Below are positions 8,235-50,446 of a stretch of 50,780 bases of DNA, one piece after another; the first letter of the stretch is position 1, and each line of letters begins with the position of its first letter. The notes under the pieces were generated by a model. It saw only the letters and a program-made list of their open reading frames with translations, had not been told where the DNA came from and ran no database searches. The translations under genes and the position numbers were made by a program. The DNA comes from Caldithrix abyssi (GTDB lineage: Bacteria > Calditrichota > Calditrichia > Calditrichales > Calditrichaceae). The stretch spans positions 1-50,780 of the forward strand of contig DRQG01000140.1 in the NCBI GenBank assembly GCA_011369465.1, written 5' to 3'.

Positions 8235-8244
8235 TAGCTTAACT

Positions 8245-10644: not shown

Positions 10645-11749
10645 AATACCTCTCTCTCAACCGGATATTACCGATTTGGAACGCCGTTATGTAATGGAAG
10701 TGCTGCAAACACCCAACCTGAGTCTTGGCCCGAAACTACCGGAGTTCGAGAAAAAAGTGAGCGATTATGTGGGAACCCGATTTGCCGTTGCGGTGAACAG
10801 TGGCACCAGTGCCTTACATTGCTGTATTAAAAGTTTTGGGATCGGCCCGGGCGACGAAGTGATTACGTCGCCGTTCAGTTTTATTGCCACATCCAATGCC
10901 GCTCTGTTCGAAGGCGCGAAACCGGTTTTTGTCGATATCGATCCGGATACCTACAACATCGATTTCCGGCAAATTGAAGAAAAAATAACCGAACGCACCA
11001 AAGCCATTATTCCCGTTCATGTGTTTGGCCTTCCTGCGGAGATGGATGCTATAAACAAAATTGCTAAGAAATACAATCTTCGTGTCCTCGAAGACGCAGC
11101 AGAAGCTATTGGCGCAGAATACAAAAAGCGTAAGGCTGGCAGCCTGGGTGACTGTGCCGTATTTGCTTTTTATCCTAATAAACAGATAACCACCGGCGAA
11201 GGCGGCATAATTGTAACCGATAATGAATCTTTGGCTGCACTATGTCGCAGTTTGCGCAATCAGGGTCGTGGTGATACCTCCGGCTGGTTACAGCATCAAC
11301 GTCTCGGTTATAATTACCGCCTATCCGATATCAATTGTGCTCTGGGTATCGCCCAGATGGAACGTCTGTCCGAAATATTGGACAAAAGAACGCGCGTAGC
11401 CCAATGGTATCTGGAACAATTACATGATGTGCCCGAATTAACCACCCAGCAAATCCCGGCCAATTGTAAAAAAAGTTGGTTTGTATTTGTGGTAGCCCTT
11501 TCGCCTTTATACAGTAAAAAAAGCCGTGATGAAATATTATCCCATTTAAGAAAGAAAGGTATCGCATGTAGTAATTACTTTAGTCCCATTCATCTGCAAC
11601 CCTTTATGGCCGCCCGGTTCGGTTATAAAGAAGGCGATTTTCCGGTAACGGAAAGTTTGTCCAAACGAACCATTGCCCTTCCATTCTTTGCCAATCTAAG
11701 CAAAGAAAACGTTCGATATGTTACAGACGTTTTGAAAAACAGTCTGTGA
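10625..11749 (+). CDS. DegT/DnrJ/EryC1/StrS-family PLP-dependent nucleotide-sugar aminotransferase (PglE/WbpE-like).
   Basis: FAFYPNKQITTGEGGII contains the PLP lysine in its characteristic context. GTSALH motif also present. Probable start MTMKEF at 10625; the ORF track lists an earlier Met at 10547, inside the previous gene. Confidence 0.88.
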   Translation: MTMKEFKIPLSQPDITDLERRYVMEVLQTPNLSLGPKLPEFEKKVSDYVGTRFAVAVNSGTSALHCCIKSFGIGPGDEVITSPFSFIATSNAALFEGAKPVFVDIDPDTYNIDFRQIEEKITERTKAIIPVHVFGLPAEMDAINKIAKKYNLRVLEDAAEAIGAEYKKRKAGSLGDCAVFAFYPNKQITTGEGGIIVTDNESLAALCRSLRNQGRGDTSGWLQHQRLGYNYRLSDINCALGIAQMERLSEILDKRTRVAQWYLEQLHDVPELTTQQIPANCKKSWFVFVVALSPLYSKKSRDEILSHLRKKGIACSNYFSPIHLQPFMAARFGYKEGDFPVTESLSKRTIALPFFANLSKENVRYVTDVLKNSL

Positions 11750-11814
11750 GAACTCTCCTTCTTAGCGCTTCTGTTTAATCATCATAAGTATTAAGTCCTG
11801 CCATTTTAACCTTT

Positions 11815-34055: not shown

Positions 34056-35738
34056 ATGCCTTTCATAAAAACAACCGCACAATGGAAAAAGGGAATAAGA
34101 AACCTGCTGGTGCTTTTGGTCGGTCTTTCCTTTTTGCCTCTCCGAGCCCAGGTTACCGACACCTTGTTTATCCTGCAAACCACCGACGTCCACGGCAATA
34201 TTATGCCCTATAATTATTTTAAGGACGCCCCGGCCGATTACGGGCTGGCCAAAATTTACAACCGCGTCATCGAGTACAGAAAGCGGCATAAGAATGTACT
34301 TTTGCTGGACAGCGGCGATCTGCTTCAGGGAACGCCGTTGGTTTCTTATTTCAACACCATGGAAACCAACCTGCCTAACCCGTTGATTTTAACCCTCAAT
34401 TATATGGGCTATGAAGCCTTTACCGTGGGTAACCATGATATCGAACAGGGGCTGTTTGTTTATAACCGCGCCCGGCGCGAATCCGATTTCCCCTGGCTAT
34501 CGGCTAATTCCCTGTTGGAGGACGGACGCACCTATTTTAAACCGTACACTATCATCAACAAAAACGGCCTGCGCATCGGCATTATCGGTTTAACCACACC
34601 GGGTATTCCCATGTGGCTGGATAAATCGTTGTATCCCGGCATTACCTGGGCAGATATGGTTAAAACCGCGCAGAAGTATGTTCCTCTGCTGCGCCCGCAG
34701 GTAGATGTGCTGGTAGGTCTTTTCCATGCCGGATTTGAAGCCGGATACAGCGCAGCTCAAACCGAAAAAGCCGGCTTGCCCAACGAAAATGCCTCACTGC
34801 TTGTGGCCGAAAATATTCCCGGCTTTGATGTGGTACTGGCCGGCCACTCCCACAGGCCGAGGCCGAAAAACGCAAAAGAACAGATAAAAGATCAGCAAAA
34901 GCCATTGTTGATCAACGCCGGTTCCTGGGGACGAAATCTTGGGGTGGCGCAGATCATTCTGCGTAAAGATGCCGACGGGGGAAAATGGCGGGTTGTAGAA
35001 AAAAGCGGCTGGCTGGAGCCAAGCAAAAATGTACAACCATCCACCGCCATACTGGAACTCAACGCCTATTATCACAAGAAAACTTTACAGTATATCCGCC
35101 AGCCTATCGCTAAATTGAACGGAACCATGTCCACCGAAAAAGCGCGTTTTGAAGACACGGCCGTGATGGAGCTGATTAACGATGCCCAAATGCAGGCTGC
35201 CGGGGCGGATATTTCTTTTGCCGCCTGCTTTAACGATCGGGTGCGTTTTAAACAGGGGACTTTGCGCGTAAAGGATGTGTATGCCATATATCCCTATGAA
35301 AACTATCTCTACCTTGTGGAAATGACCGGCAAACAGATCCGTGATTTTCTGATCTATTCCGCCCGCTATTTTATTCTGGACCACGGAAAGGTGGTTCGCA
35401 ATCCGGCTGTAAACGGCTACAACTACGATATGGCCGAAGGCATCGGTTATACGATCAAAGTGGAAGCCACAACAGAACACCCGCAGATTCCAAATAAAAT
35501 AATTGATTTGATTTATCTGAAAACGGGAAAGCCGCTGGATTTGAACAAAACCTACAAAGTGGCCATGAACAGCTACCGGGCCAGCGGCGGGGGCGGACAC
35601 ATGGCTTTTGCCGGCGCGCAAGAGGCGCCGGTTCTCTGGAAATCCAACGCGGATATGCGCACCATATTAATCGACTATTTAAAAAATAAGCAAGTGATCG
35701 AACCGAAATCGGACGGCAACTGGAGGTTGGAATATTAA
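34056..35738 (+). CDS. Secreted bifunctional metallophosphatase / 5'-nucleotidase (UshA/YfkN family).
   Basis: Signal peptide. Calcineurin-like motifs DVHGN, GDLLQG, GNHD and GHSH. C-terminal 5'-nucleotidase substrate-binding domain (YPYEN..L). Confidence 0.8.
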   Translation: MPFIKTTAQWKKGIRNLLVLLVGLSFLPLRAQVTDTLFILQTTDVHGNIMPYNYFKDAPADYGLAKIYNRVIEYRKRHKNVLLLDSGDLLQGTPLVSYFNTMETNLPNPLILTLNYMGYEAFTVGNHDIEQGLFVYNRARRESDFPWLSANSLLEDGRTYFKPYTIINKNGLRIGIIGLTTPGIPMWLDKSLYPGITWADMVKTAQKYVPLLRPQVDVLVGLFHAGFEAGYSAAQTEKAGLPNENASLLVAENIPGFDVVLAGHSHRPRPKNAKEQIKDQQKPLLINAGSWGRNLGVAQIILRKDADGGKWRVVEKSGWLEPSKNVQPSTAILELNAYYHKKTLQYIRQPIAKLNGTMSTEKARFEDTAVMELINDAQMQAAGADISFAACFNDRVRFKQGTLRVKDVYAIYPYENYLYLVEMTGKQIRDFLIYSARYFILDHGKVVRNPAVNGYNYDMAEGIGYTIKVEATTEHPQIPNKIIDLIYLKTGKPLDLNKTYKVAMNSYRASGGGGHMAFAGAQEAPVLWKSNADMRTILIDYLKNKQVIEPKSDGNWRLEY

Positions 35739-36025: not shown

Positions 36026-38866
36026 ATGAAACAACGCTTAAAAATACTTTATCTTGAAGATGAAGAAATCATTATAAACATTGTACGCAGCTTACTACAA
36101 AGCGAAGGTATTTCTCCTCAAATCACGATGGTACAGACCAAAGAAGAATATTTATCCGCCCTGCAAAACAATAAATTTGACTTCGTCCTGGCCGATTATG
36201 CTCTACCCGATTTTAACGGGTTAGAAGCGCTCAAATTACTTCGAAAAAAGGATAAACATCTTCCTTTTATTTTATTCTCCGGATCAATTGGCGAAGAGAA
36301 AGCTTTGGAAAGCCTTCGTCTTGGAGCAACCGACTATGTTTTAAAACAAAACATCAAAACACTTTTACCTGCCATTAGAAAAGCCGTCGATGAATACAAT
36401 GCTAAAAAAAAATCGGAAAAGAAATTGCAAACATTGAGTGAAAACGAAACAAAATTCCGCCTATTGGCCGAATACGCCGGCGATTGGGAATACCTATATC
36501 ATCCGAAAAATGGCTATATGTATGTTTCACCCGCTTGCGAACGGGTTACCGGTTATACGCCAAAAGATTTTAAGGCCGATCGGGATTTGTTTCTTAAACT
36601 TGTAGCTCCGGAATATGTAGATAAAATTAGAAATCATTTTCAAATGGAAACAGGGCAAGAGGAATTGCCCACACCAATCGAGTTCCCTATCCACACCCGT
36701 GACGGCAAAAAGATCTGGATTGAACATCACTGTACTCCGGTGTACGATAGCCGCGGAGAATTTATAGGGCGTCGTGCGAATAATAGAGACATCTCACAAC
36801 GTAAACAGTTTGAATTAACCCAACAATTTATGCTGCGTGTTTCTACCGCTGCATTACAAAAAAATGACGAACTGGCGTTTTACCAAACCCTGGTCAACGA
36901 GCTTAACCACCTGATCGACACAAGTAATTTTTATATTGGGATTTATAACAAAAAAACAGAAACATTGTCTTTCCCGTTTATGCGTGATGAAAAAGATCAT
37001 TTTACCGATGTACCGATAATGGATACGATAAGCCGCTTTGTAATTACAGAAAAAAAATCGGTTCTTTTACGGGGAGAACAGGTAAACGCATTTATAAAAG
37101 AAAAAGGAATCCGGCCCACCGGCGCACCGGCCAAATGCTGGCTTGGAGTACCGCTTCTCATCGATAAAGAAGTAATCGGCCTGATCACCGTTCAAAATTA
37201 TTCCGATCCGGAGGCTTATAACGAGTCCGATAAATATTTGCTGGAATTCGTTGCCAACGAAATAGCCGCACTCATCAAACGCCAGGAGATGGAAAAAAGA
37301 ATTTATCAGTTGTCGCGATCAGTGGAACAGAGTCCTGTTTCCACTGTAATAACTGACCTGGAAGGCACTATTCAATATGTAAATCCCCGGTTTTGCCAGC
37401 TCACCGGCTATTCCTACGAAGAGGCCATCGGCCAAAACCCGAGGATTCTGAAATCCGGAGAAACCCCGAAGGAAAAATATAAAGAATTGTGGGAAACCAT
37501 AACACGAGGTGAAGTTTGGAAAGGCCGTTTTCATAACCGACGTAAAAACGGGCAACTCTTCTGGGAAGATGCTACCATCGGGCCCATTAAAGATAACAAG
37601 GGCCGGATAACCAATTTTGTAGCCGTAAAAGAAGACATAACCGACCTCGTTAAAAAGGAAAAGGAATTACAGCGTTTGCACCGCTATAATGAATTACTAA
37701 ACGATTCCTTTCCTGCTGCGTTGATCGTTATGGATCAGGATGAAAAAATAATCCGCTGGAATCAAAAAGCTGAAGAACTCTTTGGAATGAGCTGGGAAGA
37801 GGTAAAAAACAATCATCTGATTCAATTGCCGCTAACCTGGAGTTGGGATCAGATATCCATGGGGATCTATGATTGCCGGGTGGATAAAAAAACCGTTCAT
37901 TTAAAAGATATTCCTTATGAAAAAGAAAAAGACGTACACGGCTTTTTGGATATTGTGATCAAATTCCTTAAAAATGAGGAAGAACAGATCGAAGGATTTT
38001 TCATCGTCTGTGAAGATGTTACCAGACAAAAGATAATCGAAAATCAACAGGTTCAGGCTCAGAAGCTGGAATCCATCGGCCAGTTGGCGGCAGGAATAGC
38101 GCACGAGATTAACACACCGGCTCAGTATGTGAGTGATAACATTCATTTTCTCGAGGATGCATTTGGGGATATAATGAAGCTGATAACCGTATTCGAGGAG
38201 ATGGGGCAAAATGCAATAGAAAATGCGGAACTGGCTAATTTGATTCAAAAGGCTGTAAAGATCGCCGAAGAGATAGATTTGGAATTTCTATCGGATGAAA
38301 TCCCCGCTGCACTTACCCAGTCCATGGAGGGTATAACCAAGGTGAGCAAAATTGTTCGGGCTATGAAAGAGTTCTCTCACCCCGGTACGAAGAGTAAAAC
38401 CTTAATCAATTTGAACCGGGCTATAGAAAACACGGCCACGGTTTGCCGGAACGAGTGGAAGTATGTTGCTGAATTGGAAACCGATTTTGACACATCTCTT
38501 TCGGAGGTACCCTGCTACCACGATGAATTTAACCAGGTTATTTTGAATATGATTATCAATGCCGCCCATGCCATTGGCAAAGAATCCGTTAATGAACAAA
38601 AAAAGGGACAAATTCGTATCGTAACCAGAAAAGAGGATGGGCAGGCCGTTGTCTGCATTAGCGATAACGGAAGCGGGATTCCCCAAAATATTATTGATAA
38701 AATATTTGATCCGTTTTTTACAACTAAAGAAGTGGGTAAGGGAACCGGCCAGGGGTTGGCCATTGCACATGACGTAATAGTAAACAAACACGGCGGAACG
38801 ATTGATGTGGAAAGTGAGCCCGGAAAAGGCACAACCTTCACTCTTCGGATTCCGCTGGAAGAATAA
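36026..38866 (+). CDS. Hybrid sensor histidine kinase with REC, PAS, GAF-like, PAS, PAS, HisKA and HATPase_c domains.
   Basis: Receiver Asp in FVLADYALPDFNG. PAS boxes, for example [20 protein letters not shown]-box ESIGQLAAGIAHEINTP at 38069-38119. G-boxes GTGQGLAIAHD and GKGTTFTL. Confidence 0.85.
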   Translation: MKQRLKILYLEDEEIIINIVRSLLQSEGISPQITMVQTKEEYLSALQNNKFDFVLADYALPDFNGLEALKLLRKKDKHLPFILFSGSIGEEKALESLRLGATDYVLKQNIKTLLPAIRKAVDEYNAKKKSEKKLQTLSENETKFRLLAEYAGDWEYLYHPKNGYMYVSPACERVTGYTPKDFKADRDLFLKLVAPEYVDKIRNHFQMETGQEELPTPIEFPIHTRDGKKIWIEHHCTPVYDSRGEFIGRRANNRDISQRKQFELTQQFMLRVSTAALQKNDELAFYQTLVNELNHLIDTSNFYIGIYNKKTETLSFPFMRDEKDHFTDVPIMDTISRFVITEKKSVLLRGEQVNAFIKEKGIRPTGAPAKCWLGVPLLIDKEVIGLITVQNYSDPEAYNESDKYLLEFVANEIAALIKRQEMEKRIYQLSRSVEQSPVSTVITDLEGTIQYVNPRFCQLTGYSYEEAIGQNPRILKSGETPKEKYKELWETITRGEVWKGRFHNRRKNGQLFWEDATIGPIKDNKGRITNFVAVKEDITDLVKKEKELQRLHRYNELLNDSFPAALIVMDQDEKIIRWNQKAEELFGMSWEEVKNNHLIQLPLTWSWDQISMGIYDCRVDKKTVHLKDIPYEKEKDVHGFLDIVIKFLKNEEEQIEGFFIVCEDVTRQKIIENQQVQAQKLESIGQLAAGIAHEINTPAQYVSDNIHFLEDAFGDIMKLITVFEEMGQNAIENAELANLIQKAVKIAEEIDLEFLSDEIPAALTQSMEGITKVSKIVRAMKEFSHPGTKSKTLINLNRAIENTATVCRNEWKYVAELETDFDTSLSEVPCYHDEFNQVILNMIINAAHAIGKESVNEQKKGQIRIVTRKEDGQAVVCISDNGSGIPQNIIDKIFDPFFTTKEVGKGTGQGLAIAHDVIVNKHGGTIDVESEPGKGTTFTLRIPLEE

Positions 38867-38926
38867 ATCATTCATCTTAAATTGGATCCACCTCTAATAA
38901 TACAGGTGTTTTAGGGATAGATATAA

Positions 38927-40141
38927 ATGAAGAGGGTTCTTTTTGTAGATGATGAGCCGAATGTGTTACAGGGTCTTCGCCGAATGATGCATTCGTTACG
39001 GAATGAGTGGGAAATGTATTTTGTGGAGAGCGGACAAGAAGCATTGGATTTACTTTCATCAAACAGGTTTGATGTTATTGTTAGCGACATGAGGATGCCT
39101 GTGATGAACGGTGCCGAACTGCTTTCCATAGTACGAGAAAAATATCCCCATATGATACGCATCATACTTTCTGGTTATTCCGATCAGGATTTGTTGCTTA
39201 AAACTGTTCGACCTGCGCACCAATTCTTGACAAAACCCTGTGATGCTGAAACAATAAAGACAACGGTTCAAAGAGCCAGCAAAACGCAGAGTGTATTGGC
39301 CAGTCTCAATGTAAAAAAGGTAATAACGGGGATCGATTCCCTGCCCAGTCTGCCCGCCCTTTACAATGAAATTATACAAAAATTGCACCAGGAAAACGTA
39401 TCCGCTAAGGAAATTGCCGGGATCATTCAAAAAGATATGGGAATGACCGCCCAGATTCTTAAACTGGTTAATTCCTCTTTTTTCGGTTTTTTTAAAAAAA
39501 TGTCCAATCCGGTTCAGGCGGTTACCTTTTTGGGGCTCGACACGATCAAAACTCTGGTTTTATCCCATAAGATTTTTTCGGCGTTAAAATTTAACCGGAA
39601 AGACCTTGTCTCTTTCGAACAGCTCTGGGGACACAGCACCCTAACTGCGGTATTCTCCCGCCATATAGCAGGTTCCATCGATAAGACCGATAAAGCGTTT
39701 ATCGAGGATGCCTTTATGACCGGATTTCTGCACGATATCGGTATTCTAATATTAGCCTCCAAATTGACCGGAGAGTATGAGAAAGTGCTTAAGCATACAC
39801 TAAACAGTGATCAGGAACTATGGAAAACGGAACATGAACTCATGGGCACCAGTCATGCTGAAATAGGTGCCTATCTACTGAGCTTATGGGGGTTTTCCGA
39901 GAATATTATCGAAGCAATTTTATATCATCATCAGGTTAAAATTTTCGGGGATGAGCCAAAATCTTTGATTTTTGTAGTTCATCTGGCCGATGCCTTTGCT
40001 CTGCATCTTAATCCGGCGTTAAATAAAAAAGGATTGGCCCGTTTAAATCAGAACTATCTCAAAGCTCTGGATTTATATGATAAAGCTAAAATCTGGTATA
40101 ATGAGTGTAAAAAAATATTTGAAGAAGGGGCAATTCAGTGA
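38927..40141 (+). CDS. Response regulator with a C-terminal HDOD domain.
   Basis: REC domain: DDEPNVL..DVIVSDMRMPVMNG. HDOD signature IIQKDMGMTAQILKLVNSSFFG at about 39421-39486. Downstream H..HDIG-like LHDIGILIL. Confidence 0.8.
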   Translation: MKRVLFVDDEPNVLQGLRRMMHSLRNEWEMYFVESGQEALDLLSSNRFDVIVSDMRMPVMNGAELLSIVREKYPHMIRIILSGYSDQDLLLKTVRPAHQFLTKPCDAETIKTTVQRASKTQSVLASLNVKKVITGIDSLPSLPALYNEIIQKLHQENVSAKEIAGIIQKDMGMTAQILKLVNSSFFGFFKKMSNPVQAVTFLGLDTIKTLVLSHKIFSALKFNRKDLVSFEQLWGHSTLTAVFSRHIAGSIDKTDKAFIEDAFMTGFLHDIGILILASKLTGEYEKVLKHTLNSDQELWKTEHELMGTSHAEIGAYLLSLWGFSENIIEAILYHHQVKIFGDEPKSLIFVVHLADAFALHLNPALNKKGLARLNQNYLKALDLYDKAKIWYNECKKIFEEGAIQ

Positions 40142-41295
40142 ACGATAGAATTTTATTTGTAGATGATGAGCAGCACGTATTGGGTTCCTATCGTCGGATA
40201 TTACGGAAAAACTGGGACATCGTTACTGCACTCGGCGGTGAAACCGCTTTAGATATTTTTGACAACAAAGGTCCTTTCGCAGTTGTTGTAAGTGATATGC
40301 GCATGCCCGGAATGAATGGGATTCAGCTTTTGACTAAGATAAAAGAAATAAGTCCCGATACTGTGCGTATGATGCTTACCGGTTATGCCGATTTTAATAC
40401 AGCAATGGAAGCCGTTAACGAAGGACATATTTTCCGTTTTCTTACCAAACCCTGTCCGCCGGACTTACTCAACCGTGCTTTACAGGAAGGAGTACGCCAA
40501 TACCGCCTGATAAAAGCGGAACAGGAGCTGTTGAACAAAACTCTGAAAGGAACCATCCAGGTACTTATAGAGATACTTTCCGTGATGGATCCTAAAGCCT
40601 TTAACAGGGCAAACAGACTACGCGATTACATCAAACGACTAACCGAACAAAAAGCAATAGCCGGTAATTGGGAAATTGAAATTGCTGCTCTGCTATCGCT
40701 AATCGGACAAGTAACGGTTCCCGGTACCGTAATGGAAAAAGTCCATAATAACGTATCATTAACGGATGTGGAAAAAGCGATGATTATGCGCATTCCTAAA
40801 GCAGGATTTGATTTATTGGTGAAAATACCCAGACTCGAACAGATTGCTAAAATCGTTTTGTATCAAAATAAACGCTTTAATGGTGAAGGTTTTCCCGAAG
40901 ATGACATAAAGGGTGTCGATTTACCCCTTGGTGCAAGGTTGCTAAAAATCTTAAATGACTTGATAATTCTTGAAGACAAGGGTATCTTGAGGAAGGACGC
41001 TTTTGTTACCATGGCCAAAAGAACCGGTTGGTATGACCCTAATTTGCTCTTAACTATATCCAACAAAATATCCGGCTCTTCAGAGAACGTACCTGCTTTT
41101 AGAAAAGAAACCAAAAAAGTAAAGATCAGCGAATTACACAGCGGATATTTACTTCTGGAAAATATCGAGACCAGCACCGGCCAAATGTTGATGATGGCCG
41201 GTCAGGAAATATCAGACTCACATATTATGCGTATAAAAAACTGGGCTAAATTATATACCATAAAAGAGCCTATTAAAGTGCTTCAAAAAATTTAA
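40138..41295 (+). CDS. Response regulator with a degenerate HD-GYP-like output domain.
   Basis: REC domain: VVVSDMRMPGMNG. The C-terminal region is collinear with HD-GYP, but LSLIGQ replaces HDIGK and YQNKRFNGEGFPEDDIKGVDLPLGARLLKILNDL (about 40861-40960) replaces HHErwDGsGYP..IPLgARI..vaDafDA. Confidence 0.6.
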   Translation: MNDRILFVDDEQHVLGSYRRILRKNWDIVTALGGETALDIFDNKGPFAVVVSDMRMPGMNGIQLLTKIKEISPDTVRMMLTGYADFNTAMEAVNEGHIFRFLTKPCPPDLLNRALQEGVRQYRLIKAEQELLNKTLKGTIQVLIEILSVMDPKAFNRANRLRDYIKRLTEQKAIAGNWEIEIAALLSLIGQVTVPGTVMEKVHNNVSLTDVEKAMIMRIPKAGFDLLVKIPRLEQIAKIVLYQNKRFNGEGFPEDDIKGVDLPLGARLLKILNDLIILEDKGILRKDAFVTMAKRTGWYDPNLLLTISNKISGSSENVPAFRKETKKVKISELHSGYLLLENIETSTGQMLMMAGQEISDSHIMRIKNWAKLYTIKEPIKVLQKI

Positions 41296-41456
41296 CATCT
41301 GGATTATTATCGACAGATATTTGATTCAATTGTTCATTTTTAACTATTCCGTATCAATACTTCTCGTGCAACCGGTAATGGTTTTATTGTAGTAGTGGGG
41401 GGAGGAAATTTTTATAAGCTGACCTGTATTCTTGCGGAAGGAGAAAGAGTTGTTGT

Positions 41457-44264
41457 ATGAGAGAAAAAAACGGAAATAAACCTCGTAACTCCTCTGATAC
41501 TATTAAACCCACGTCGGCTTTATTCCAGGCCGTTATTTACTGTATTAGCGATGCCGTGATAACCACGGACTCCCATGGGCGAATTGTAATCATGAATCCC
41601 GTAGCTGTAAAACTCACCGGTTGGGAAGAACATGAAGCACGTGGTAAACCGTTGGAAGAGGTGTTTAGAATTGTTAATGAGGACACCCGTGAAACAGCGA
41701 CTGATTCTGTTAAGCGAATCCTGAAAGAGGGTCTGGTGCTCGGTCTGGCAAATAATACCCTGCTCATATCCAAAAACGGCCGGGAAATTCCTATTGCCGA
41801 TAGCGGTGCTCCCATACGTACGCCAAGCGGCCGGATTAAGGGAGCGGTTATAGTTTTTCGCGACCAGACAAAGGAACGGGCTGCACAGAAGGCTATGGAA
41901 GAAGCAAAACTACTTGCTGAGAGTATTGTGGCCACAATTCATAATCCCTTGCTGGTTTTGGATGCTGATTTGTGTATCATCTCGGCCAACCGTTCATTTT
42001 ATCAAAAATTCAAAATCGGCCGGGACGAAACCGTCGGTAAGTTTTTTTACAACCTGGATGGCGGTCAATGGGATATCCCTGAGCTTAAAATACTACTGGA
42101 AGATTTACTCCCGCAAAACACCGCTGTTGACGCATGCCAGGTTGAAAAGGAATTTCCCCGTATAGGAAAACGGATCATGCGTTTAAATGCCCGCCGTATT
42201 TATAGTGAAGATAAGAAAACAAAAATGATTTTATTGGCTATCGAAGATATCAGCGAACAGAAACGTAGCGAACGTATGCAAAAAGCACAGTACAATATTG
42301 TCCAAAGCATACTGGCTTCATCAACTCTTAATGAAATCATTGAAAAAATCCGCCGTGAATTGACCGATATTATCGAACCCAAAAATTTTGTAATCGTTTT
42401 GTATGATGAGAAAAAGGATTTGCTTTATTCCTATATTGAAAAAGATGAAAAGGATGAAATTCCTCCCTACTGGCCGGTAAAGGGTTCATTGACCGGCTAC
42501 GTGGTTCGCCAAAAAAAAACTTTACTACTGAAAAAACAAGAGATCAAACGGTGGATTCGGTCTAAAAAAATAATTAAACGGGGTACGATTCCGGAAACCT
42601 GGTTGGGGATTCCTTTGTTGAGCGGAGAGAAAACAGGCGGCGTCCTGGTGCTGCAAAACTATGAACATCCTTCCGTCATAGATAAGAATCTTGTTCAATT
42701 AATGGAGTTTATCGCCCGCCAAACAGGCATTTTTTTAAGCCGTATGCAGGCCAGGGCAGAGCGGGAGCTCTTAAGCACGGCTATTGAGCAGGCGGCAGAG
42801 ACCATCGTCATTACCGATAATTTAGGTACAATTCAATACGTAAATCCGGCTTTCGAAAGGGTATCCGGATATTCGCGGGAAGAGGCGTTGGGACAAAATC
42901 CCCGAATTTTAAAAAGCGGCAAGCACGATCCGCTGTTTTATGAGAATCTTTGGGGAACTATTACCAGCGGTAAAACCTGGCGCGGCCGCTTCATTAATAA
43001 GCATAAAGACGGCACCCTGTACACGGAAGAAGCCGCTATTTCGCCTGTATCGGATGCCAACGGAAGGATATCCAATTTCGTAGCGGTCAAACGCGACATC
43101 ACACGCGAAGAAAAACTGGAATTACAGTTTCGCCAGGCGCAGAAAATGGAATCCATCGGACGCCTGGCCGGAGGTGTAGCGCACGATTTTAATAATATGC
43201 TTAGTGTTATTTTGGGCTATTCGGAATTGCTTTTATCGAAACTTAACCCCGAAGAAAAAATATACCGCGATATACAAGAAATACATGCCGCCGGCAAACG
43301 CTCAGCATCGCTTACCACCCAGCTGCTGGCCTTTGCCCGTAAACAAACCATAGCACCGGAGTGCCTGAATCTTAATGAATGCGTGAGCAATATGCTTAAA
43401 ATGCTGCGCCGTTTAATCGGTGAAAATATTGAGCTTATTTGGATACCCGATGAACATCTGGACAATGTATATGCCGATCCTTCTCAGATTGACCAGATAC
43501 TGGCCAATTTATGTGTGAACGCCCGCGACGCCATTGGCAACGCAGGAAAGATCACCCTGGAAACAACCAATGTTACGATGGACGATGTCTATTGTAGCGA
43601 CCATGCTTATTTTAAACCCGGCCCCTATGTTATGCTGGCAGTCAGTGACGACGGCCGTGGTATGAACGAAGAGACCCGTTTGAAAATATTCGATCCCTTC
43701 TTTACCACAAAAGAACCCGGCAAAGGAACCGGGTTGGGTATGTCCACTGTTTACGGTATCGTTAAACAGAATAACGGTTTTATTAATGTGTACAGCGAAA
43801 TCGGCAAAGGTACAACAATAAAGATCTATCTGCCGCGTTATTCCAAAGCCGATGTTACGGGTAAACAGGAAGAGCAGGAAGAAATCATACACGGTCAGGG
43901 AGAACGTATTTTGTTGGTAGAAGATGAAACGGCCATCCTGGAACTTATCCAGACCATGCTGGAAGACATTGGATACCAGGTTATCGCCGCCGAATCACCC
44001 GAAGAAGCGGTTTTGCTGGCCGGGGGACAAAAAGAATCCCTTCATTTACTTATGACTGATGTGGTGATGCCGGAAATGAGCGGTAAAGAATTGGCAGTCC
44101 AATTACAAAAAATACATCCCAAAATCAAAATCCTTTATATGTCCGGATATACATCTAATATCATCGCCCATCGGGGAATTTTGGAAAAGGGTGTGTATTT
44201 TATAAACAAACCTTTTTCAATGCGTGAATTATCCAAAAAGATTCGCCAGGTTCTTACAAGTTAA
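41457..44264 (+). CDS. Hybrid sensor histidine kinase with PAS, PAS, GAF, PAS, HisKA and HATPase_c domains and a C-terminal REC.
   Basis: H-box [20 protein letters not shown] boxes [18 protein letters not shown] and [10 protein letters not shown]-terminal receiver ILLVEDE...[13 protein letters not shown]. Confidence 0.85.
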
Positions 44265-44299: not shown

Positions 44300-45397
44300 T
44301 TATTCTTGCAAGTTCTCAAGTGTTTGTACAATGCGCTCGCTTGCTTTACCGTCCCAAAGCGGCGGAATTTGCCCTTTTTTCCATTGATCGTTGAGAATTT
44401 TGTCCGTCAAAGTGATGAGCTTTTCGGTATCGGTGCCCACAATTTCATTGGTGCCCAGTTCGGCGGTAATGGGGCGTTCGGTATTTTCGCGTACTGTTAA
44501 ACAGGGTTTCCCCAGGTAGGTGGTTTCTTCCTGCAGGCCTCCGGAATCGGTAATAACAAACCGGCAATTCATCTCCAGATTGATGAAATCCAGATAACCC
44601 AACGGCGGTACTAATTTAAGATTGGGCAGATGATCAACCTGATTCATCAAACCGAACGATTCGAGATTTTTCCGTGCTCTGGGATGAATAGGAAAGACAA
44701 CCGTAATCCGTTCCTGAATGGTTTGCAAAGCGTTCAGCAAGCGCGGCAATATCTGCGGATCGTCCACATTGCTGGGACGATGCAAAGTTACCAAAACAAA
44801 TTCTTCCTCAACAAGGCCAAAACGCGACAGGGTATCCATTTGCCGGGCTTTTTCCATAAAACCGATCAGAGAATCGATCATCACGTTTCCGGTAAAATGG
44901 ATTTTATCGGGATGTACGCCCTCACGAAGCAGGTTTTCTTCACCGCTTTTTTCGGTTACAAAAAGATGATCGGCCAGCGCGTCGGTAACTAAGCGGTTGA
45001 TCTCTTCGGGCATCTGACGGTCAAAACTGCGCAATCCCGCTTCTACGTGGGCTACGGGAATCCACAGTTTGCTGGCCACAATACTGCAGGCCATAGTGGA
45101 ATTTACATCGCCGACTACCAGCACCAGATCCGGTTTTTGCTCCTGGCAGATTTTTTCGAACTCCACCATTATTTTTGCGGTTTGCTCAGCGTGGCTGCCC
45201 GAGCCCACTCCCAAATAGACGTCCGGTTTGGGCAGCTGCAAATCATTAAAAAAGAATTTGCTCATTCGTTCGTCGTAGTGCTGTCCGGTATGGACCAAGA
45301 TCGGCTCCAGAGCTGAATGTGTATTTTGCATTCGTCGATGAATAGGAGCGATCTTCATAAAATTGGGCCGGGCGCCCACCACATTAAATATGCGCAT
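44300..45397 (-). CDS. wecB: Non-hydrolysing UDP-N-acetylglucosamine 2-epimerase.
   Basis: MRIFNVVGARPNFMKIAPI.., HTGQHYD and HVEAGLRS motifs. Collinear with WecB/MnaA. Confidence 0.88.
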   Translation of the reverse strand: MRIFNVVGARPNFMKIAPIHRRMQNTHSALEPILVHTGQHYDERMSKFFFNDLQLPKPDVYLGVGSGSHAEQTAKIMVEFEKICQEQKPDLVLVVGDVNSTMACSIVASKLWIPVAHVEAGLRSFDRQMPEEINRLVTDALADHLFVTEKSGEENLLREGVHPDKIHFTGNVMIDSLIGFMEKARQMDTLSRFGLVEEEFVLVTLHRPSNVDDPQILPRLLNALQTIQERITVVFPIHPRARKNLESFGLMNQVDHLPNLKLVPPLGYLDFINLEMNCRFVITDSGGLQEETTYLGKPCLTVRENTERPITAELGTNEIVGTDTEKLITLTDKILNDQWKKGQIPPLWDGKASERIVQTLENLQE

Positions 45398-45438
45398 AGT
45401 TCAAAATCTTTCGTCGTATAATCCGTTCCATTCTCAAT

Positions 45439-46365
45439 TTATTGTTGTTCCTTAAACCAGCGGTAGGTTTCAGTAATACCCTGTTCCAGACCGATTTTAG
45501 CCGACCAACCCAGTTTGTTAAGGCGGCTCACGTCCAGCAGTTTACGGGGCGTTCCGTCAGGTTTGCTTGTATCAAAGGTCAGTTCACCCGTATACCCCAC
45601 AATCTGTTTAATCAACAAGGCCAGTTCTTTGATGGATATATCCTGGCCGACACCGATGTTTACAAAATCGTTTCCGGAATAATTTCGCATTAAGAACAGG
45701 CAGGCGTCCACCAGGTCGTCCACGTGTAAAAACTCCCTTTTAGGGTTGCCTGTACCCCAAATTTGCACAACCGGCGCCTGCTTCAGTTTAGCTTCGTGAA
45801 ATTTACGGATCAGTGCCGGAAGCACGTGGGAGGTTTGCAGATCGAAGTTATCATTCGGCCCATACAAGTTGGTGGGCATAACGGAAATGAAATCCGTGCC
45901 GTATTGATCATTGTAAGCCTGGCACATTTTGATACCGGCGATTTTGGCGATAGCGTACGGTTCATTGGTGGGTTCCAGCGGGCCGGTAAGCAGATGCTCT
46001 TCCTTCATAGGCTGAGGGGCGTGTTTCGGATAGATGCAGGAGCTGCCCAGAAAGAGCAGTTTTTTTACGCCGCTCAAATATGCGGAATGGATGATATTAT
46101 TCTGAATTTGCAAATTTTCATAAATAAATTGAGCGCGGTAAGTATTGTTAGCCAGAATACCGCCCACCTTGGCCGCTGCCAGAAATACAAAATCCGGTTT
46201 CTCAGTTTCAAAAAAACGACGAACAGCGCTTTGATCCAGCAGATCGAGTTCTTCTCTGCCGCGCAGCAACAAGTTTACAAAACCATCTTTTTGCAGCCGG
46301 CGCACAATAGCTGAGCCCACCATACCCCGGTGACCGGCAACGTAAATTTTACTTTCTTTTTTCAT
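45439..46365 (-). CDS. fcl: GDP-L-fucose synthase (GDP-4-keto-6-deoxy-D-mannose 3,5-epimerase/4-reductase).
   Basis: Near-collinear with E. coli Fcl: [80 protein letters not shown]. Confidence 0.93.
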
Positions 46366-46368
46366 TCT

Positions 46369-47442
46369 CTAATACCCTCTGCGCTGAACCAGTTCCCAGT
46401 CGGCCCGGGCCATAATCCGTACCAGTTCTTCAAAGCGCACTTTGGGATTCCAGCCCAGTTCCTTTTCGGCCTTTGAAGCATCGCCGATCAGCAGATCCAC
46501 CTCTGTGGGACGGTAATATTTAGGGTCTACCGCTACTACAGCGGTTCCGGCCGGAATATCGCCGCCCTGAGGGCGGGTCAGCTTATGGATAAGACGCCCC
46601 ACTTCGTCGGCGCCCTGGCCGCTCCATTCCAGTTCCATGCCCAGCTCGGCAAATGTTTTGTCCACAAATTCGCGTACGGAGTGGGTCTCGCCCGTGGCAA
46701 TTACATAATCCTGGGCTTTGTCCTGCTGAAGCATCAACCACATAGCTTCCACATATTCCGGAGCATATCCCCAGTCCCGTTTGGCGTTCAAATTACCGAT
46801 GAGCAGTTTATTCTGTAATCCGTACTTAATTTTTGCCGCAGCCATAGTAATTTTACGGGTTACAAACGTACCGCCCCGGCGCGGCGATTCGTGATTAAAC
46901 AGGATACCGTTGCAGGCAAACAGATTGTAGGCCTCGCGGTAATTCACAATAATCCAGTAGGCGTATAATTTGGCCACCCCATACGGCGATCGCGGGTAAA
47001 AAGGCGTTTTTTCCGTCTGCGGCACTTCCTGCACCTTTCCGTACAATTCGCTGGTGGAGGCCTGATAAAATCTGGTGTCGATCCCGGTTTCCTTGATGGC
47101 GTCGATAAAACGCAGCGTACCCACCGCGTCCACCTCGGCTGTGTATTCGGGGACGTCAAAAGAAACTTTTACGTGGCTTTGCGCGGCCAGGTTATAGATT
47201 TCGTCCGGATGTATCTTTTCCAGCAGGCGGTTCAGATTGCTGGAATCGGTCAGGTCGCCGTGATATAAAAAGAAGCGTTGGTCATGCAGGCTGCGGTCAT
47301 TAAAAATGTGATCTATCCGGCCGGTGTTAAAGGAGCTGGCCCGGCGGATGATGCCGTGCACTTCGTATCCTTTTTCCAGCAACAACTCGGCCAAATAGGA
47401 ACCGTCCTGTCCGGTGATGCCGGTAATCAGCGCTTTTTTCAT
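46369..47442 (-). CDS. gmd: GDP-mannose 4,6-dehydratase.
   Basis: Near-collinear with E. coli Gmd: [73 protein letters not shown]. Confidence 0.95.
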
Positions 47443-47482
47443 TCTAATTGCTCTCTTTCTGAATTATATTTGAATACATTGT

Positions 47483-47845
47483 TTATTTGGGAATCGTTTT
47501 TGCCGGGAACAACAACCGGCTGGCCTCCGCCGAAAGCCGGATTAAATGGATGTAAAGCAATGTGTTCATGCGTATATCTTTTTTCTCTGCGGTGTATTGC
47601 ATAGCCAGCACTTCTCTGAAGCGGCGCAGCTCCTTTAATTTGCCGCGCCATTTAGGATCGCTCGAAGTCAGATCGGTAAGTTCAAAGGCCCGTTCGTAGC
47701 ATTCATTTACTGAATCCGTTCTTCCGGTTACAATATGGTTTTTTGCCCGATTTAGCTCATTGGCGATCATCAACACCTGCTGCCCTCTGGAACGGTTAAA
47801 CCATTTTTCTTCGCTCAGGTTTTTATGCCATTTTAAAGAATACAT
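47483..47845 (-). CDS. Hypothetical small helical protein (120 aa).
   Basis: ORF only, with no recognisable motif. Its start overlaps the upstream gene's stop by 1 nt. Confidence 0.4.
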   Translation of the reverse strand: MYSLKWHKNLSEEKWFNRSRGQQVLMIANELNRAKNHIVTGRTDSVNECYERAFELTDLTSSDPKWRGKLKELRRFREVLAMQYTAEKKDIRMNTLLYIHLIRLSAEASRLLFPAKTIPK

Positions 47846-48180
47846 TATCTTATGAGTTCCGTAATAATAGATTGGATTTTAGCACGCAACGCTTCATCTT
47901 CTACTTCCATCGAGCGGTTGCCGTTTGCCGGTCTGATATTGATAAAAGAGGTATATTCTATCCTATATCCGTCATCTGTCAGTTCCAAATTGGCCCCCCA
48001 AAGGTCTTGCTGCTTCGAGCCTTCTTCTAAGAGTTTTTCTTCAATATCGGCATGCATTTCTTCATCGGCACCTATTATTTTTTTGGAAATGTCCACCACA
48101 ATTTTAATGATTCCGCCCAAATCTATTTCTTTTGTTTGCCACAAGGTTTTGAAGGCAATCGGTTCTTTAATCAGTATCAT
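47845..48180 (-). CDS. Hypothetical small acidic protein (111 aa).
   Basis: ORF only. Overlaps by 1 nt with the downstream ORF on the same strand. Confidence 0.4.
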   Translation of the reverse strand: MILIKEPIAFKTLWQTKEIDLGGIIKIVVDISKKIIGADEEMHADIEEKLLEEGSKQQDLWGANLELTDDGYRIEYTSFINIRPANGNRSMEVEDEALRAKIQSIITELIR

Positions 48181-48190
48181 AGCCTGTTTT

Positions 48191-48805
48191 TTATTTTATG
48201 CTTTTATCTTCCGGCCAATCCAGACATCTGAGCAGGCCTTTTTCCACTTCCTTATATTTCCAGCCGCTTTTGGGGCAGGTCATAATACCCTGATCATCCG
48301 GATGGGATAAGCGGGCCCCGTGCCGGCTCATCCAGCCGATGCGCCGCGCCGGTACGCCGGCCATCAGCGCGTAGTCGGGCACGTGTTTGGTCACCACCGC
48401 TCCGGCGGCGATAAAGGCAAAACGGCCGATATCGTGCCCGCACACGATCGTCGCGTTGGCGCCGATGGTAGCGCCGTATTTCACCACCGTTTTTAAATAA
48501 AATGCGCTTCCCCGCTGGGGAAATTCGCAGCGCGGATCGATGATATTGGTAAAAACCATCGAAGGACCGCAAAATACGTAGTCTTCCAATTCTACCCCTT
48601 CGTAAATGGAAACGTTATTTTGTATTTTGCAATAATTACCGATGCGAACGTTGTTGCCAACATTCACATTTTGCCCAAACACGCATCCCCGGCCGATAAC
48701 CGAGCCGCTCTGGATATGCGAAAAATGCCAGATTTTTGTGCCTTCGCCGATTTGTACGTTATCATCCACGAAAGAAGATTCGTGTACAAAGTAGTTTTTA
48801 TCCAA
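48191..48805 (-). CDS. Hexapeptide-repeat (left-handed beta-helix) sugar N-acetyltransferase, WbpD/WlbB-like.
   Basis: Tandem [LIV]-G-x-x-x-x repeats (VQIGEGTKIWHFSHIQSGSVIGRGCVFGQNVNVGNNVRIGNYCKIQNNVSI). C-terminal extension as in WbpD-type UDP-amino-sugar acetyltransferases. Confidence 0.75.
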   Translation of the reverse strand: MDKNYFVHESSFVDDNVQIGEGTKIWHFSHIQSGSVIGRGCVFGQNVNVGNNVRIGNYCKIQNNVSIYEGVELEDYVFCGPSMVFTNIIDPRCEFPQRGSAFYLKTVVKYGATIGANATIVCGHDIGRFAFIAAGAVVTKHVPDYALMAGVPARRIGWMSRHGARLSHPDDQGIMTCPKSGWKYKEVEKGLLRCLDWPEDKSIK

Positions 48806-48808
48806 AAT

Positions 48809-49183
48809 TCACTCCTCCGTCAAGCGATAGATTTTATCCAATAATTCGCCGTATTCCGTTTTAAGCCGATTAAAAATTTCCATAATTCTCTTTTCGTCAT
48901 AGGTATGCGTTGTCTCGTTTCGGTCGTCCACCATTTTAAGCAGACGTTCCGTTGTATCCTCGTCATACAATCCAAGACTAAAACCTTCCCTGAAACATTG
49001 TTTGGGCGAGTTGCATACCAGACCATGAACCCGGCGCAGATAATCGCGCAACGATTTCCAGGCCAGTTCAAAAGTAAATTCAAAACGCTGTATGGCGGCG
49101 TCTCTTACGATAACAGAGGGTTCCATCTCCAGCGCTTCTTTCAATTTTTGCACAGCGTTATAAAAATTGGCGCGTTTTACCAT
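48809..49183 (-). CDS. HEPN-domain protein, HepT / 'nucleotidyltransferase substrate-binding protein' (HI0074 family), a toxin-type component.
   Basis: IVRDAAIQRFEFTFELAWKSLRDYL and DRNETTHTYDE match the HI0074/HepT family, including the R-x4-HxY-like region. Overlaps the MNT gene by 7 nt. Confidence 0.78.
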   Translation of the reverse strand: MVKRANFYNAVQKLKEALEMEPSVIVRDAAIQRFEFTFELAWKSLRDYLRRVHGLVCNSPKQCFREGFSLGLYDEDTTERLLKMVDDRNETTHTYDEKRIMEIFNRLKTEYGELLDKIYRLTEE

Positions 49184-49464
49184 AGTTTGCCTTCCCGGAT
49201 AATGCGCTGTTTCAGTTCTTCGGAAATGCCGTTTAGGTCAACAATATCCACTTTATAAGGGATATCCGAATTCTCCAGTTTTTCTTTGATTCTGGATATA
49301 AAGCGGGCCGGAATCTTTTCCGACAGGTCAATCGCGATATCAAAATCCGAAGTGGCGTGAGCGTCGCCTCTGGCACGGGAACCGTACAGAATAATCTTTA
49401 ACTGAGGATCGGGAATGATCTCGCGAATAATTTTGATAATACGATCCCTATAACCGGCGGGCAA
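49177..49464 (-). CDS. Minimal nucleotidyltransferase (MntA-type) antitoxin component.
   Basis: LKIILYGSRARGDAHATSDFDIAIDL is the GS-x9-DxD polymerase-beta nucleotidyltransferase signature. 95 aa. Confidence 0.8.
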   Translation of the reverse strand: MPAGYRDRIIKIIREIIPDPQLKIILYGSRARGDAHATSDFDIAIDLSEKIPARFISRIKEKLENSDIPYKVDIVDLNGISEELKQRIIREGKLW

Positions 49465-49489
49465 TTCCCTTACTCCTTTTTGATCAGCG

Positions 49490-50446
49490 TTATCCGATTT
49501 TTACCAAAGGATGGACGGTCTCTTTGCTGCCCGAAATGATTTCACTATGCCGGATTTTGTGCACCAGTTCGATCGACGGCCGGGCCTCGGGGATGCCGTA
49601 CCCACCGCCTTGGAGAATATCCCGGTAAACAACCGTATGTAAATCCGTAAATCCTCCGGAGAATTCCAGCTCTGCACCATCTATTTTTATACTGCGATAG
49701 GTAGGCTGTCCCTTATCGAGAACATCTTTGGGTAAATCGTTTTTATCCAAAGATAGAAACCAGCGCACATCAGCCTTTTCCAGTTCGATAAAACCGGCCA
49801 TCTTTTTGGGATCGTTCAGATACACTTCGTTGTGCCGCACTTTACCAAAAATCCACATCAGCATATCAAAAAAATGAATACCGATATTGGTGGCAACCCC
49901 GCCCGATTTGTGAATATCCCCTTTCCACGAATAAAAATACCACTTGCCGCGCGAGGTGATATAGGTTAAATCGATTGAATGCTTTTGGCCGGGAGGAAGG
50001 GAATCAATTGTCTTCTTTAGATCCTTTATGGCCTGATGAACGCGCAGTTGAAGTACATTGTAAATTTTGATTCCGGTTTCGGCTTCCAACTCTTCCAGCG
50101 CGTCCAGATTCCATGGATTGAGCACCAGCGGTTTTTCGCAGATAGGATGGGCGCCCACACGCAGCGCAAAACGGATATGGGCGTCATGCAGATAATTGGG
50201 TGAACAGATGCTGATATAATCGATCTTTTTCCCCTCATCGTGGCGGCGCAGCAATTCAATGTGACGGTCGAAGCGCTCAAATTCGGTAAAAAAATCAACA
50301 TCATCAAAATAACGATCCAAAATGCCTACCGAGTCAAAAGGATCGAAGGCGGCGATGAGCCGGTTACCGGTATCTTTTATGGCCTGCATGTGCCGCGGAG
50401 CGATATACCCGGCAGCCCCGATCAGGGCAAAATTTTTTATATTCAT
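49490..50446 (-). CDS. Gfo/Idh/MocA-family NAD-dependent oxidoreductase, likely a WbpB-like UDP-sugar 3-dehydrogenase.
   Basis: N-terminal Rossmann MNIKNFALIGAAGYIAPRHMQA. ICSPNYLHD and EKP motifs. Sits in a nucleotide-sugar operon beside a WbpD-like acetyltransferase. Confidence 0.78.
   Translation of the reverse strand: MNIKNFALIGAAGYIAPRHMQAIKDTGNRLIAAFDPFDSVGILDRYFDDVDFFTEFERFDRHIELLRRHDEGKKIDYISICSPNYLHDAHIRFALRVGAHPICEKPLVLNPWNLDALEELEAETGIKIYNVLQLRVHQAIKDLKKTIDSLPPGQKHSIDLTYITSRGKWYFYSWKGDIHKSGGVATNIGIHFFDMLMWIFGKVRHNEVYLNDPKKMAGFIELEKADVRWFLSLDKNDLPKDVLDKGQPTYRSIKIDGAELEFSGGFTDLHTVVYRDILQGGGYGIPEARPSIELVHKIRHSEIISGSKETVHPLVKIG

Follow-up and report, generated by a model that had tools for sequence, protein, structure and literature searches.

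A four-gene signalling locus in Caldithrix abyssi

We analysed a 50,780-nucleotide stretch of Caldithrix abyssi DNA (contig DRQG01000140.1 of assembly GCA_011369465.1; hereafter the window), focusing on a signalling locus at positions 36026-44264 in which two sensor kinases flank two response regulators, the second of which carries an apparently dead HD-GYP domain. The locus comprises four plus-strand open reading frames (ORFs), which we call HK1, protein 2, protein 3 and HK2 in the order in which they lie. An ORF check returned exactly the boundaries proposed by an initial annotation made from the sequence alone, and Pfam agreed with the domain architectures given there, including the REC domain at the N terminus of HK1, that at the C terminus of HK2, and the multiple PAS domains of both kinases. 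The features are as follows.

36026-38866, plus strand: HK1, 946 amino acids (aa); Pfam matches to REC, PAS, GAF, two further PAS domains and HATPase_c
38927-40141, plus strand: protein 2, a REC-HDOD response regulator of 404 aa; REC at aa 1-120, HDOD at aa 139-336
40138-41295, plus strand: protein 3, 385 aa; REC, a predicted dead HD-GYP-like (HD_5) domain and a small C-terminal beta domain
40138-40497, plus strand: receiver domain of protein 3, with D9-D10, D53, T81 and K104 intact, running on into a long helix
40561-41046, plus strand: HD_5/HD-GYP-like domain of protein 3, without metal ligands in alignments to PA4781, V-cGAP3, PmGH and DvhD
41101-41292, plus strand: conserved C-terminal beta-rich domain of protein 3, about 64 aa, after a disordered linker (aa 315-321)
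41457-44264, plus strand: HK2, an accessory hybrid kinase of 935 aa; Pfam matches to two PAS domains, GAF, PAS, HisKA (His576), HATPase_c and a C-terminal REC

Protein 3 begins at a GTG codon that overlaps the preceding stop, that of protein 2 (GTGA). In Pfam, protein 2 matched REC (E = 4.9e-21), HDOD (2e-56; 191.1 bits against a cut-off of 22.9) and HD (1.3e-07), and protein 3 matched REC (1.8e-19) and HD_5 (PF13487; 4.5e-33). The receivers of the two regulators are 40% identical to each other. The HD_5 match spans profile positions 2-170 of 170, in keeping with the earlier view that protein 3 is collinear with HD-GYP phosphodiesterases. A receiver followed directly by an HD-GYP-type domain is the architecture of the RpfG family, which explicitly takes in inactive forms (Galperin and Chou, bioRxiv 10.1101/2021.11.05.467447).

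No Hpt domain was matched at E <= 1 in any of the four proteins (Pfam), nor was one found in the other window ORFs scanned (all of at least 180 aa minus three antisense or overlapping ones, plus one of 120 aa). H-NOX, FIST and EAL domains were likewise absent from the four proteins and from every window ORF scanned. Promoter and terminator scans of the locus gave signal at chance level only, Rfam placed zero RNA families within the window, and defence-system models matched nothing relevant.

Protein 3 is predicted to keep an HD-GYP fold without the metal site

We compared protein 3 with three active proteins, PA4781 (4r8z), V-cGAP3 (5z7c) and PmGH (4mcw), and with DvhD (9rbz), which is inactive, using pairwise and clade-profile alignments that gave consistent results. 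The motif LLHDIGK reads LLSLIGQ in protein 3 (aa 185-191, nt 40690-40710), such that S187-L188 stands in place of the HD dyad and Q191 in place of the Lys. The losses extend along the whole site: the first metal-binding His is R157, the third metal-site His is I219, and HHE has become Q243-N244-K245, turning HHE.(W/F)DG.GYP into QNKRFNGEGFP (aa 243-253; protein 3 segment LYQNKRFNGEGFP, nt 40858-40896). In terms of the PmGH ligands, E185, H189, H221, D222, H250, H276 and H277 correspond to K153, R157, S187, L188, I219, Q243 and N244, and for D305 only D274 (or its neighbour N273) may correspond. Protein 3 therefore has substitutions at seven or more of the eight metal-ligand positions of PmGH, several of them to Arg or Lys. 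Protein 3 keeps N248-G-E-G-F-P253, R267, D274 and R295-x-x-x-Y299-D300. Of the motif HHExx(D/N)GxGYP, then, the HHE half is lost and the (D/N)GxG(F/Y)P half survives as NGEGFP.

These alignments, including that to PF13487, confirm both the relationship to HD-GYP domains and the loss of metal ligands. The initial annotation had noted the replaced dyad (LSLIGQ), which understates the change, as HHE and the first His are gone too. It had also counted the conversion of GYP to GEGFP as degeneracy. The substitution is present, yet GFP is also found in the active enzyme PA4781, and among the relatives of protein 3 Phe occurs here more often than any other residue, so GFP is a normal variant and not a defect.

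That the fold is of the HD-GYP type is indicated by the PF13487 match, by profile matches to 5z7c, 9rbz, 4r8z and 4mcw, and by a Foldseek match to 9rbz. Searched at full length against the PDB, protein 3 returned receiver domains only; its output region, or the clade profile, reached the HD-GYP structures. DvhD was the only HD-GYP-type structure among the 50 fold-search matches listed (TMt 0.72) and the second-best PDB match of the clade profile (8.4e-16). In the AlphaFold model (mean pLDDT 87.9), the receiver leads into a long helix (aa 108-150); a helical HD-type domain follows, and a disordered linker connects this to a beta-rich domain (aa 322-385). The stalk helix carries an invariant ELLxKTLxG (aa 128-138), and the C-terminal domain has the consensus L..G..L..dv.T..G.lL..aG..it...l.Ri.N.a...gIkEPI.V. 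In the receiver, D9, D10, D53, T81 and K104 are invariant across the homologue alignment.

The receiver of protein 3, linker helix included, is 45% identical to PDB entry 3kcn, a receiver from a Rhodopirellula baltica "adenylate cyclase homolog", which shares the linker motif ELLxKTxxG with aa 1-140 of protein 3 (nt 40138-40557). The receiver-plus-stalk module thus seems to be used with another output domain too.

As judged from these alignments and the predicted model, protein 3 has an HD-GYP fold from which the metal-ligand set is essentially gone, and it cannot, with those ligands lost, be a canonical metal-dependent hydrolase. Hydrolysis through a non-canonical active site is hardly credible. 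Some HD-GYP proteins do tolerate the loss of a single ligand, Lysobacter RpfG being discussed in this connection (bioRxiv 10.1101/2021.11.05.467447), but the substitutions in protein 3 go far beyond one ligand, bring Arg and Lys into the site, and are comparable to those of DvhD and HnoD, both of which are inactive.

Degeneracy is characteristic of a large clade

The replacements seen in protein 3 recur in every one of its 120 closest homologues, most of which align along their whole length at 44-71% identity, and precomputed Pfam domains make each of them a REC-HD_5 protein. Those with a named source come from Calditrichia/Calditrichales, Acidobacteriota/Terriglobia, Armatimonadota, Verrucomicrobiota/Opitutaceae and Nitrospinaceae, and many are labelled "RpfG family c-di-GMP phosphodiesterase" by the source databases (c-di-GMP, cyclic di-GMP). 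When 50%-identity cluster representatives were searched exhaustively with aa 128-385, the output region without the receiver, 2,762 clusters matched at E <= 1e-10, of which 631 reached E <= 1e-30. The matched proteins are almost all about 385-395 aa long, with the match beginning near residue 128. An intact HD dyad occurs in 0 of the 145 nearest representatives.

What replaces the metal site is itself conserved. Among the 145 best new cluster representatives, and in protein 3 numbering, the residue of protein 3 recurs as follows: L186 in 137, P195 in 142, L208 in 135, P220 in 139, Q243 in 115, K245 in 131, G249 in 140, G251 in 137, P253 in 135, R267 in 142, D274 in 131, Y299 in 136 and D300 in 143. 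Position 248, N248 in protein 3, is Asp in 125 and Asn in 13 more; R157 (86/145) and R295 (87/145) are the majority residues at their columns; and position 252 is most commonly Phe (75/145), with Phe or Tyr in 91. We also scanned genomes, one per species, and classified 80 loci by phmmer; this yielded 61 degenerate homologues and 12 with an intact HD...HHE...GYP set. SQ in place of HD is the clade consensus, found in 35 of the 61, protein 3 itself having SL.

By these comparisons the degeneracy, which recurs far more regularly than chance would allow, is a fixed family trait and not local decay, with basic residues now standing where metals were coordinated. The strong conservation of an alternative residue set shows a remodelled pocket held by purifying selection, as expected of a pseudoenzyme that has kept a non-catalytic role.

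Four clade members depart from the usual layout: in P0017 (583 aa), P0121 (512 aa), P0134 (478 aa) and P0145 (1,004 aa) the output domain is matched in two to three stretches, or the protein is much longer, which suggests tandem pseudo-HD-GYP domains or fusions inside the clade. Another member lies on a contig of a metagenome-assembled genome (MAG) of Leptospira interrogans serovar Manilae (L074:7983-9137); it has a REC N terminus, the motifs LFSHIGC...LYQNKNYDGSGPP, and no cassette of the kind described below nearby. A 2026 census of Leptospira c-di-GMP proteins lists five HD-GYP proteins, and this member is not among them (PMC12943098).

The kinase and the two regulators form a widespread cassette

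In the genome scan, a homologue was counted as belonging to a cassette if it had a REC-HDOD gene no more than 3 kilobases (kb) away and, within 5 kb, a kinase whose core matched that of HK1 (E < 1e-60), and a locus as informative if at least 4.5 kb of upstream DNA was available. Both partners were present at 41 of the 61 degenerate loci, or at 35 of the 44 informative ones (80%), and at only 2 of the 12 loci with intact HD-GYP homologues (Fisher p = 0.002). Cassettes occur in about 12 phyla, including Planctomycetota, Verrucomicrobiota, Acidobacteriota, Desulfobacterota, Alpha-/Gammaproteobacteria, Myxococcota, Chloroflexota, Nitrospirota, Bdellovibrionota and others. A relative at 56% identity (L002) and an Armatimonadota genome at 47% (L004) both show the gene order kinase, REC-HDOD, REC-HD_5, and a protein identical to protein 3, flanked by the same genes, lies on a metagenome scaffold in ENA. 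Cassette genes are often translationally coupled, their stop and start codons overlapping or nearly so, and they share one strand, with exceptions: L026, L027, L036, L050 and L051 show another gene order or have genes on both strands. Positions 36026-41295 are thus one copy of a widespread cassette consisting of a sensor kinase, a REC-HDOD regulator and a REC-pseudo-HD-GYP regulator.

Further gene families do not recur next to the cassette, the most frequent additional cluster having been seen at 6 of 75 loci, and no GGDEF or EAL gene linked to it was found. At L002, the place of HK2 is taken by a PAS/PocR protein without GGDEF or EAL, which therefore adds no link to c-di-GMP.

In more distant clade members the change goes further still: 35 of the 61 in the genome scan have wholly lost the G-x-G-x-P loop, and the cassette is usually kept, so that the loop is dispensable for the cassette's task in those lineages. 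Focal genes that have lost it include those at L021, L023, L028, L030, L035, L036, L039, L040, L043, L044, L047, L048, L050-L052, L055-L057, L059-L062, L083 and L084.

Two cassette loci additionally encode an intact REC-HD-GYP protein: L029:9149-10159 (Desulfovibrio), immediately after the degenerate gene, with LVHDIGK...HHERIDGTGYP, and L023:2804-3955 (a Terriglobales MAG), with LLHDVGK...HHEWFDGSGYP.

We found no description of the three-gene cassette, of the SQ/Q-x-K clade with its C-terminal domain, or of its scale in the searchable part of the literature, and the term "REC-HDOD" did not occur in the literature searched.

Protein 2 appears to retain a di-metal site

The best solved match of protein 2 is the Geobacter HDOD protein 3HC1 (E = 4.7e-26), which holds two irons liganded by five His and one Asp (PMC12075610). 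H236, H269, D270, H310, H334 and H335 of protein 2 align one for one with these residues, and across the cassette the ligand positions are kept in 43-52 of 54 HDOD proteins (about 80-96%, by position). The phospho-acceptor residues of protein 2 are conserved across the cassette HDOD proteins as well. Judged by these alignments, protein 2 keeps a putative di-metal ligand set and is not a pseudoenzyme. The two regulators had initially been described as a pair of pseudoenzyme outputs; this description holds for protein 3, and no loss of metal ligands is seen in the HDOD domain (PF08668) of protein 2.

The architecture of protein 2 is that of the REC-HDOD regulators MmoQ (3LJX, 3P3Q), whose HDOD domain matches protein 2 at 1.8e-18, DVU0330 and GsmR. 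DVU0330 of D. vulgaris keeps its HD residues and showed weak Mn-dependent hydrolysis of bis(p-nitrophenyl) phosphate (bis-pNPP) and none of c-di-GMP, and GsmR lacks the active-site His (PMC4114195). The accounts of DVU0330 and GsmR consulted here make no mention of pairing with a dead HD-GYP regulator.

Only the upstream kinase belongs to the cassette

HK1 has an atypical dimerisation and histidine phosphotransfer domain that Pfam HisKA does not match. Its H-box, AHEINTP (His693; nt 38099-38119), is nevertheless normal and is followed by about 50 inserted residues that HK2 lacks. HK1 scored 220 bits against the NCBIfam model T2SS_HK, under the cut-off of 450. Its catalytic core recurs at E values of 1e-70 to 1e-104 in regulator-adjacent kinases of other phyla. 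The N, G1, F and G2 boxes are intact in this highly conserved core, and the sensor regions of the cassette kinases vary widely (424-1,236 aa). An N-terminal REC such as that of HK1 is present in 7 of 64 cassette kinases.

HK2 scored 421 bits against the NCBIfam CckA-like model, under its cut-off of 1000. Elsewhere, HK2-type kinases do not turn up regularly beside the cassette, and only a minority of its loci have a kinase directly downstream. HK1 (aa 255-539, 36788-37642) and HK2 (aa 264-549, 42246-43103) have in common a GAF-PAS module that is 39% identical over 286 aa, its PAS part being far more alike than its GAF part. HK2 therefore looks like a lineage-specific extra input, and the proposal that two kinases bracket the regulators as a unit does not hold beyond this locus: HK1-type kinases alone are conserved with the regulators, HK2 being a local addition. 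Against the NifL model, HK1 and HK2 scored 202 and 185 bits, under the model cut-off. The first PAS domain of NifL binds flavin, and the PAS domains of HK1 and HK2 might be flavin or redox sensors.

The initial annotation had proposed a His-Asp-His-Asp phosphorelay in which the two hybrid kinases feed two pseudoenzyme regulators. Both kinases do carry a receiver, and with the paralogous GAF-PAS module this makes cross-talk conceivable in this genome. A relay is nonetheless very unlikely: the four proteins lack an Hpt domain, HK2 is not conserved with the regulators, few cassette kinases have the N-terminal REC, and one of the two supposed pseudoenzymes keeps the metal ligands of its HDOD domain.

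Cyclic di-GMP binding by protein 3 is doubtful

With its canonical activity gone, protein 3 had been suggested to be a non-hydrolysing c-di-GMP receptor or adaptor. A lack of hydrolysis agrees with the lost ligands, and for a role as receptor or adaptor there are direct precedents (HnoD, NosR and DvhD); c-di-GMP as the ligand is poorly supported. One form of such a role would be a metal-independent receptor for c-di-GMP or another cyclic dinucleotide, resembling DvhD, with ligand and phosphorylation together setting the output. DvhD of Desulfovibrio vulgaris (9RBZ, 9RC0) has the same HD-to-SQ change as the clade consensus and non-ligands in place of HH, and it binds c-di-GMP tightly without metals and without hydrolysis (PMC13090378). 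It also resembles protein 3 in the helical stalk before the domain, besides the fold and profile matches given above. DvhD differs from protein 3 in being a membrane dCache-PAS receptor and in keeping the R-x-Y-R and Glu contacts to c-di-GMP.

We mapped the DvhD contacts onto protein 3 by sequence alignment, as distinct from structural superposition, with the following correspondences.

DvhD L577: L208 in protein 3, conserved in the clade
DvhD P567: P195, conserved in the clade
DvhD Y621 (Tyr of GYP): F252, mostly Phe or Tyr in the clade
DvhD M646: L278, hydrophobic in protein 3
DvhD K582: K213, semi-conserved
DvhD R650-x-Y652-R653: a loop shorter by five residues, motif absent; RPYR/K in V-cGAP3, PA4781 and PmGH
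DvhD E668 (guanine-specific): R295, Arg in the majority of the clade
DvhD Y523: K153, unmatched in protein 3

Overall, protein 3 does not reproduce the canonical-site contacts of DvhD. The equivalents of L577, P567, Y621 and M646, together with a pocket that is conserved and basic, count in favour of such a receptor. The R-x-Y-(R/K) motif, which in DvhD clamps base and phosphate, is however absent, which makes DvhD-style binding doubtful; the guanine-specific Glu aligns with a mostly conserved Arg, and the HDIGK Lys is lost from protein 3 and not conserved in the clade. Moreover, more than half of the scanned members lack the GYP loop and usually keep the cassette, so binding in the manner of DvhD is unlikely as the clade's common function, and the cassette has no linked GGDEF or EAL gene. 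We therefore regard a cyclic dinucleotide receptor as an unlikely reading, if one to keep in view. Another anionic ligand in the basic pocket is possible.

The best single-sequence PDB match to the output region of protein 3, extending through the GYP-loop region, is the N-terminal pseudo-HD-GYP domain of V-cGAP3 (5Z7C). That domain is fused in tandem with an active HD-GYP domain in one enzyme, whereas the output of protein 3 stands alone under the control of a receiver.

A branched pathway with a dead HD-GYP modulator

To our knowledge, only a few response regulators with an inactive HD-GYP domain are known (HnoD, NosR and PA2572). They are an acknowledged class, and the central idea of the initial annotation is in this sense not new in kind.

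HnoD (SO_2541) of Shewanella oneidensis, in which HD has become SE and HHE has become QLE, does not hydrolyse c-di-GMP; as one of several regulators under one kinase, it inhibits its sister regulator HnoB by protein contact (bioRxiv 10.1101/2021.11.05.467447). HnoD and protein 3 both combine a REC with a degenerate HD-GYP domain, and HnoD has, as this clade does, Ser in place of the His of HD and Gln in place of the first His of HHE. HnoD differs in its partner, the REC-EAL protein HnoB where the cassette has a REC-HDOD regulator, and in its input, an H-NOX-associated kinase where the cassette has a PAS/GAF kinase; the conserved C-terminal beta domain of protein 3 is a further difference, HnoD having been compared by description only.

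NosR (BPSS1648) of Burkholderia pseudomallei, a REC with a degenerate HD-GYP domain (HG...GTP), is phosphorylated by the soluble kinase NosK and was hypothesised by its authors to modulate another c-di-GMP enzyme (PMC12570481). The H-box of its kinase reads H-E-I-N-N, that of HK1 H-E-I-N-T. Against the NCBIfam NosR model NF053512, protein 3 scored 241.8 bits, under the cut-off of 400, and protein 2 scored 131 bits over its receiver only (aa 4-123). The two systems differ in that no FIST/NosP gene is present here and that NosR is not paired with an HDOD regulator.

By analogy with these systems, we favour a branched pathway in which the dead HD-GYP protein is a phosphorylation-dependent modulator of its HDOD sister, a reading to which we give a probability of roughly 40%. 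The HK1-type kinase would receive its input through the sensor region (here REC, PAS and GAF, varying between genomes) and would phosphorylate both paralogous receivers. The pseudo-HD-GYP regulator would hydrolyse nothing and would act through phosphorylation-dependent protein contacts that may involve its stalk helix, the remodelled pocket and the C-terminal beta domain. Its most likely target would be the co-encoded, putatively metal-containing HDOD regulator, paralleling the action of HnoD on HnoB, and HK2 would contribute a lineage-specific extra input through the sensor module it shares with HK1. The intact REC-HD-GYP proteins at L029 and L023 give anecdotal support to a modulator role.

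Several points weigh against such a modulator. Contact between the two regulators and phosphotransfer from HK1 to either are inferred. About 20% of the informative loci are without the full cassette. The test of the docking surface gave no specific signal, co-variation being weak (identity in helix alpha1 0.444 within versus 0.406 between loci, with a similar small effect in the rest of the domain). The conserved basic pocket (R157, K245, R267 and R295) with the DG.G(F/Y)P loop could equally fit a small-molecule ligand. In addition, the REC-HDOD protein DVU0330 showed only weak bis-pNPP activity and none on c-di-GMP (PMC4114195).

The absence of a docking signal would also be expected if the regulators merely shared a kinase and had independent outputs, so that their pairing reflected co-regulation only. 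Branched two-component systems with independent outputs are common, and the loci with altered order or strand fit such an arrangement. It sits less easily with an association that persists over about a dozen phyla, with stop and start codons that frequently overlap or nearly do so, and with the lack of a third conserved gene as a separate target, and we think it a doubtful explanation, though a serious one.

Beyond the favoured modulator of an HDOD sister, a more specific arrangement can be envisaged in which the cassette is an ancient unit dedicated to signalling, the HDOD regulator is a receiver-controlled enzyme or a metal or redox sensor and the dead HD-GYP protein its obligate allosteric partner or a metal-free ligand sensor; we consider this rather improbable as a whole.

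Surroundings of the locus

Two polysaccharide clusters flank the locus in the window. The first (91-13746) encodes a GNVR/AAA_31 Wzz-type tyrosine kinase, a MurJ/Wzx-like flippase, Wzy_C, GT4 and Bac_transf proteins, along with glycosyltransferases, a PHP phosphatase, an ATP-grasp protein, DegT and a CapD-like protein. The second (44300-50446) encodes a UDP-GlcNAc 2-epimerase, GDP-fucose synthase, GDP-mannose 4,6-dehydratase, a hexapeptide transferase and a GFO/IDH oxidoreductase. Their position hints at control of surface polysaccharide by the cassette here; its other loci do not share this linkage.

On the same strand and 288 nt upstream of HK1 lies a gene (34056-35738, plus strand) for a UshA/CpdB-type 5'-nucleotidase/2',3'-cyclic phosphodiesterase (Metallophos and 5_nucleotid_C). 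Its product has an N-terminal hydrophobic leader that is signal-peptide-like by eye, and is putatively secreted. CpdB-type enzymes degrade cyclic dinucleotides (PMC12943098), and the location of this gene beside HK1 may be a coincidence. Farther upstream, an ORF of 1,853 aa (21755-27316, plus strand) has a GC content of about 0.58, compared with about 0.45 around it, and is overlapped by long antisense ORFs; its sole Pfam match is to aminotransferase class I/II, at aa 428-743.

Significance

The comparisons describe a dead clade, comprising thousands of sequence clusters, whose genes are tied to those for one kinase core and for an HDOD regulator with a putative di-metal site. Many proteins annotated as "RpfG family c-di-GMP phosphodiesterase" or "HD domain-containing phosphohydrolase" are, by the same token, probably non-enzymes. 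With the cassette, two hitherto uncharacterised kinds of output become parts of a single, defined system of three proteins that is open to reconstitution, and it offers a handle on HDOD, a widespread signalling domain. If the HDOD regulator and its dead HD-GYP partner were indeed an enzyme and pseudoenzyme pair, this would assign a biochemical function to HDOD, with a nucleotide messenger as one candidate substrate.

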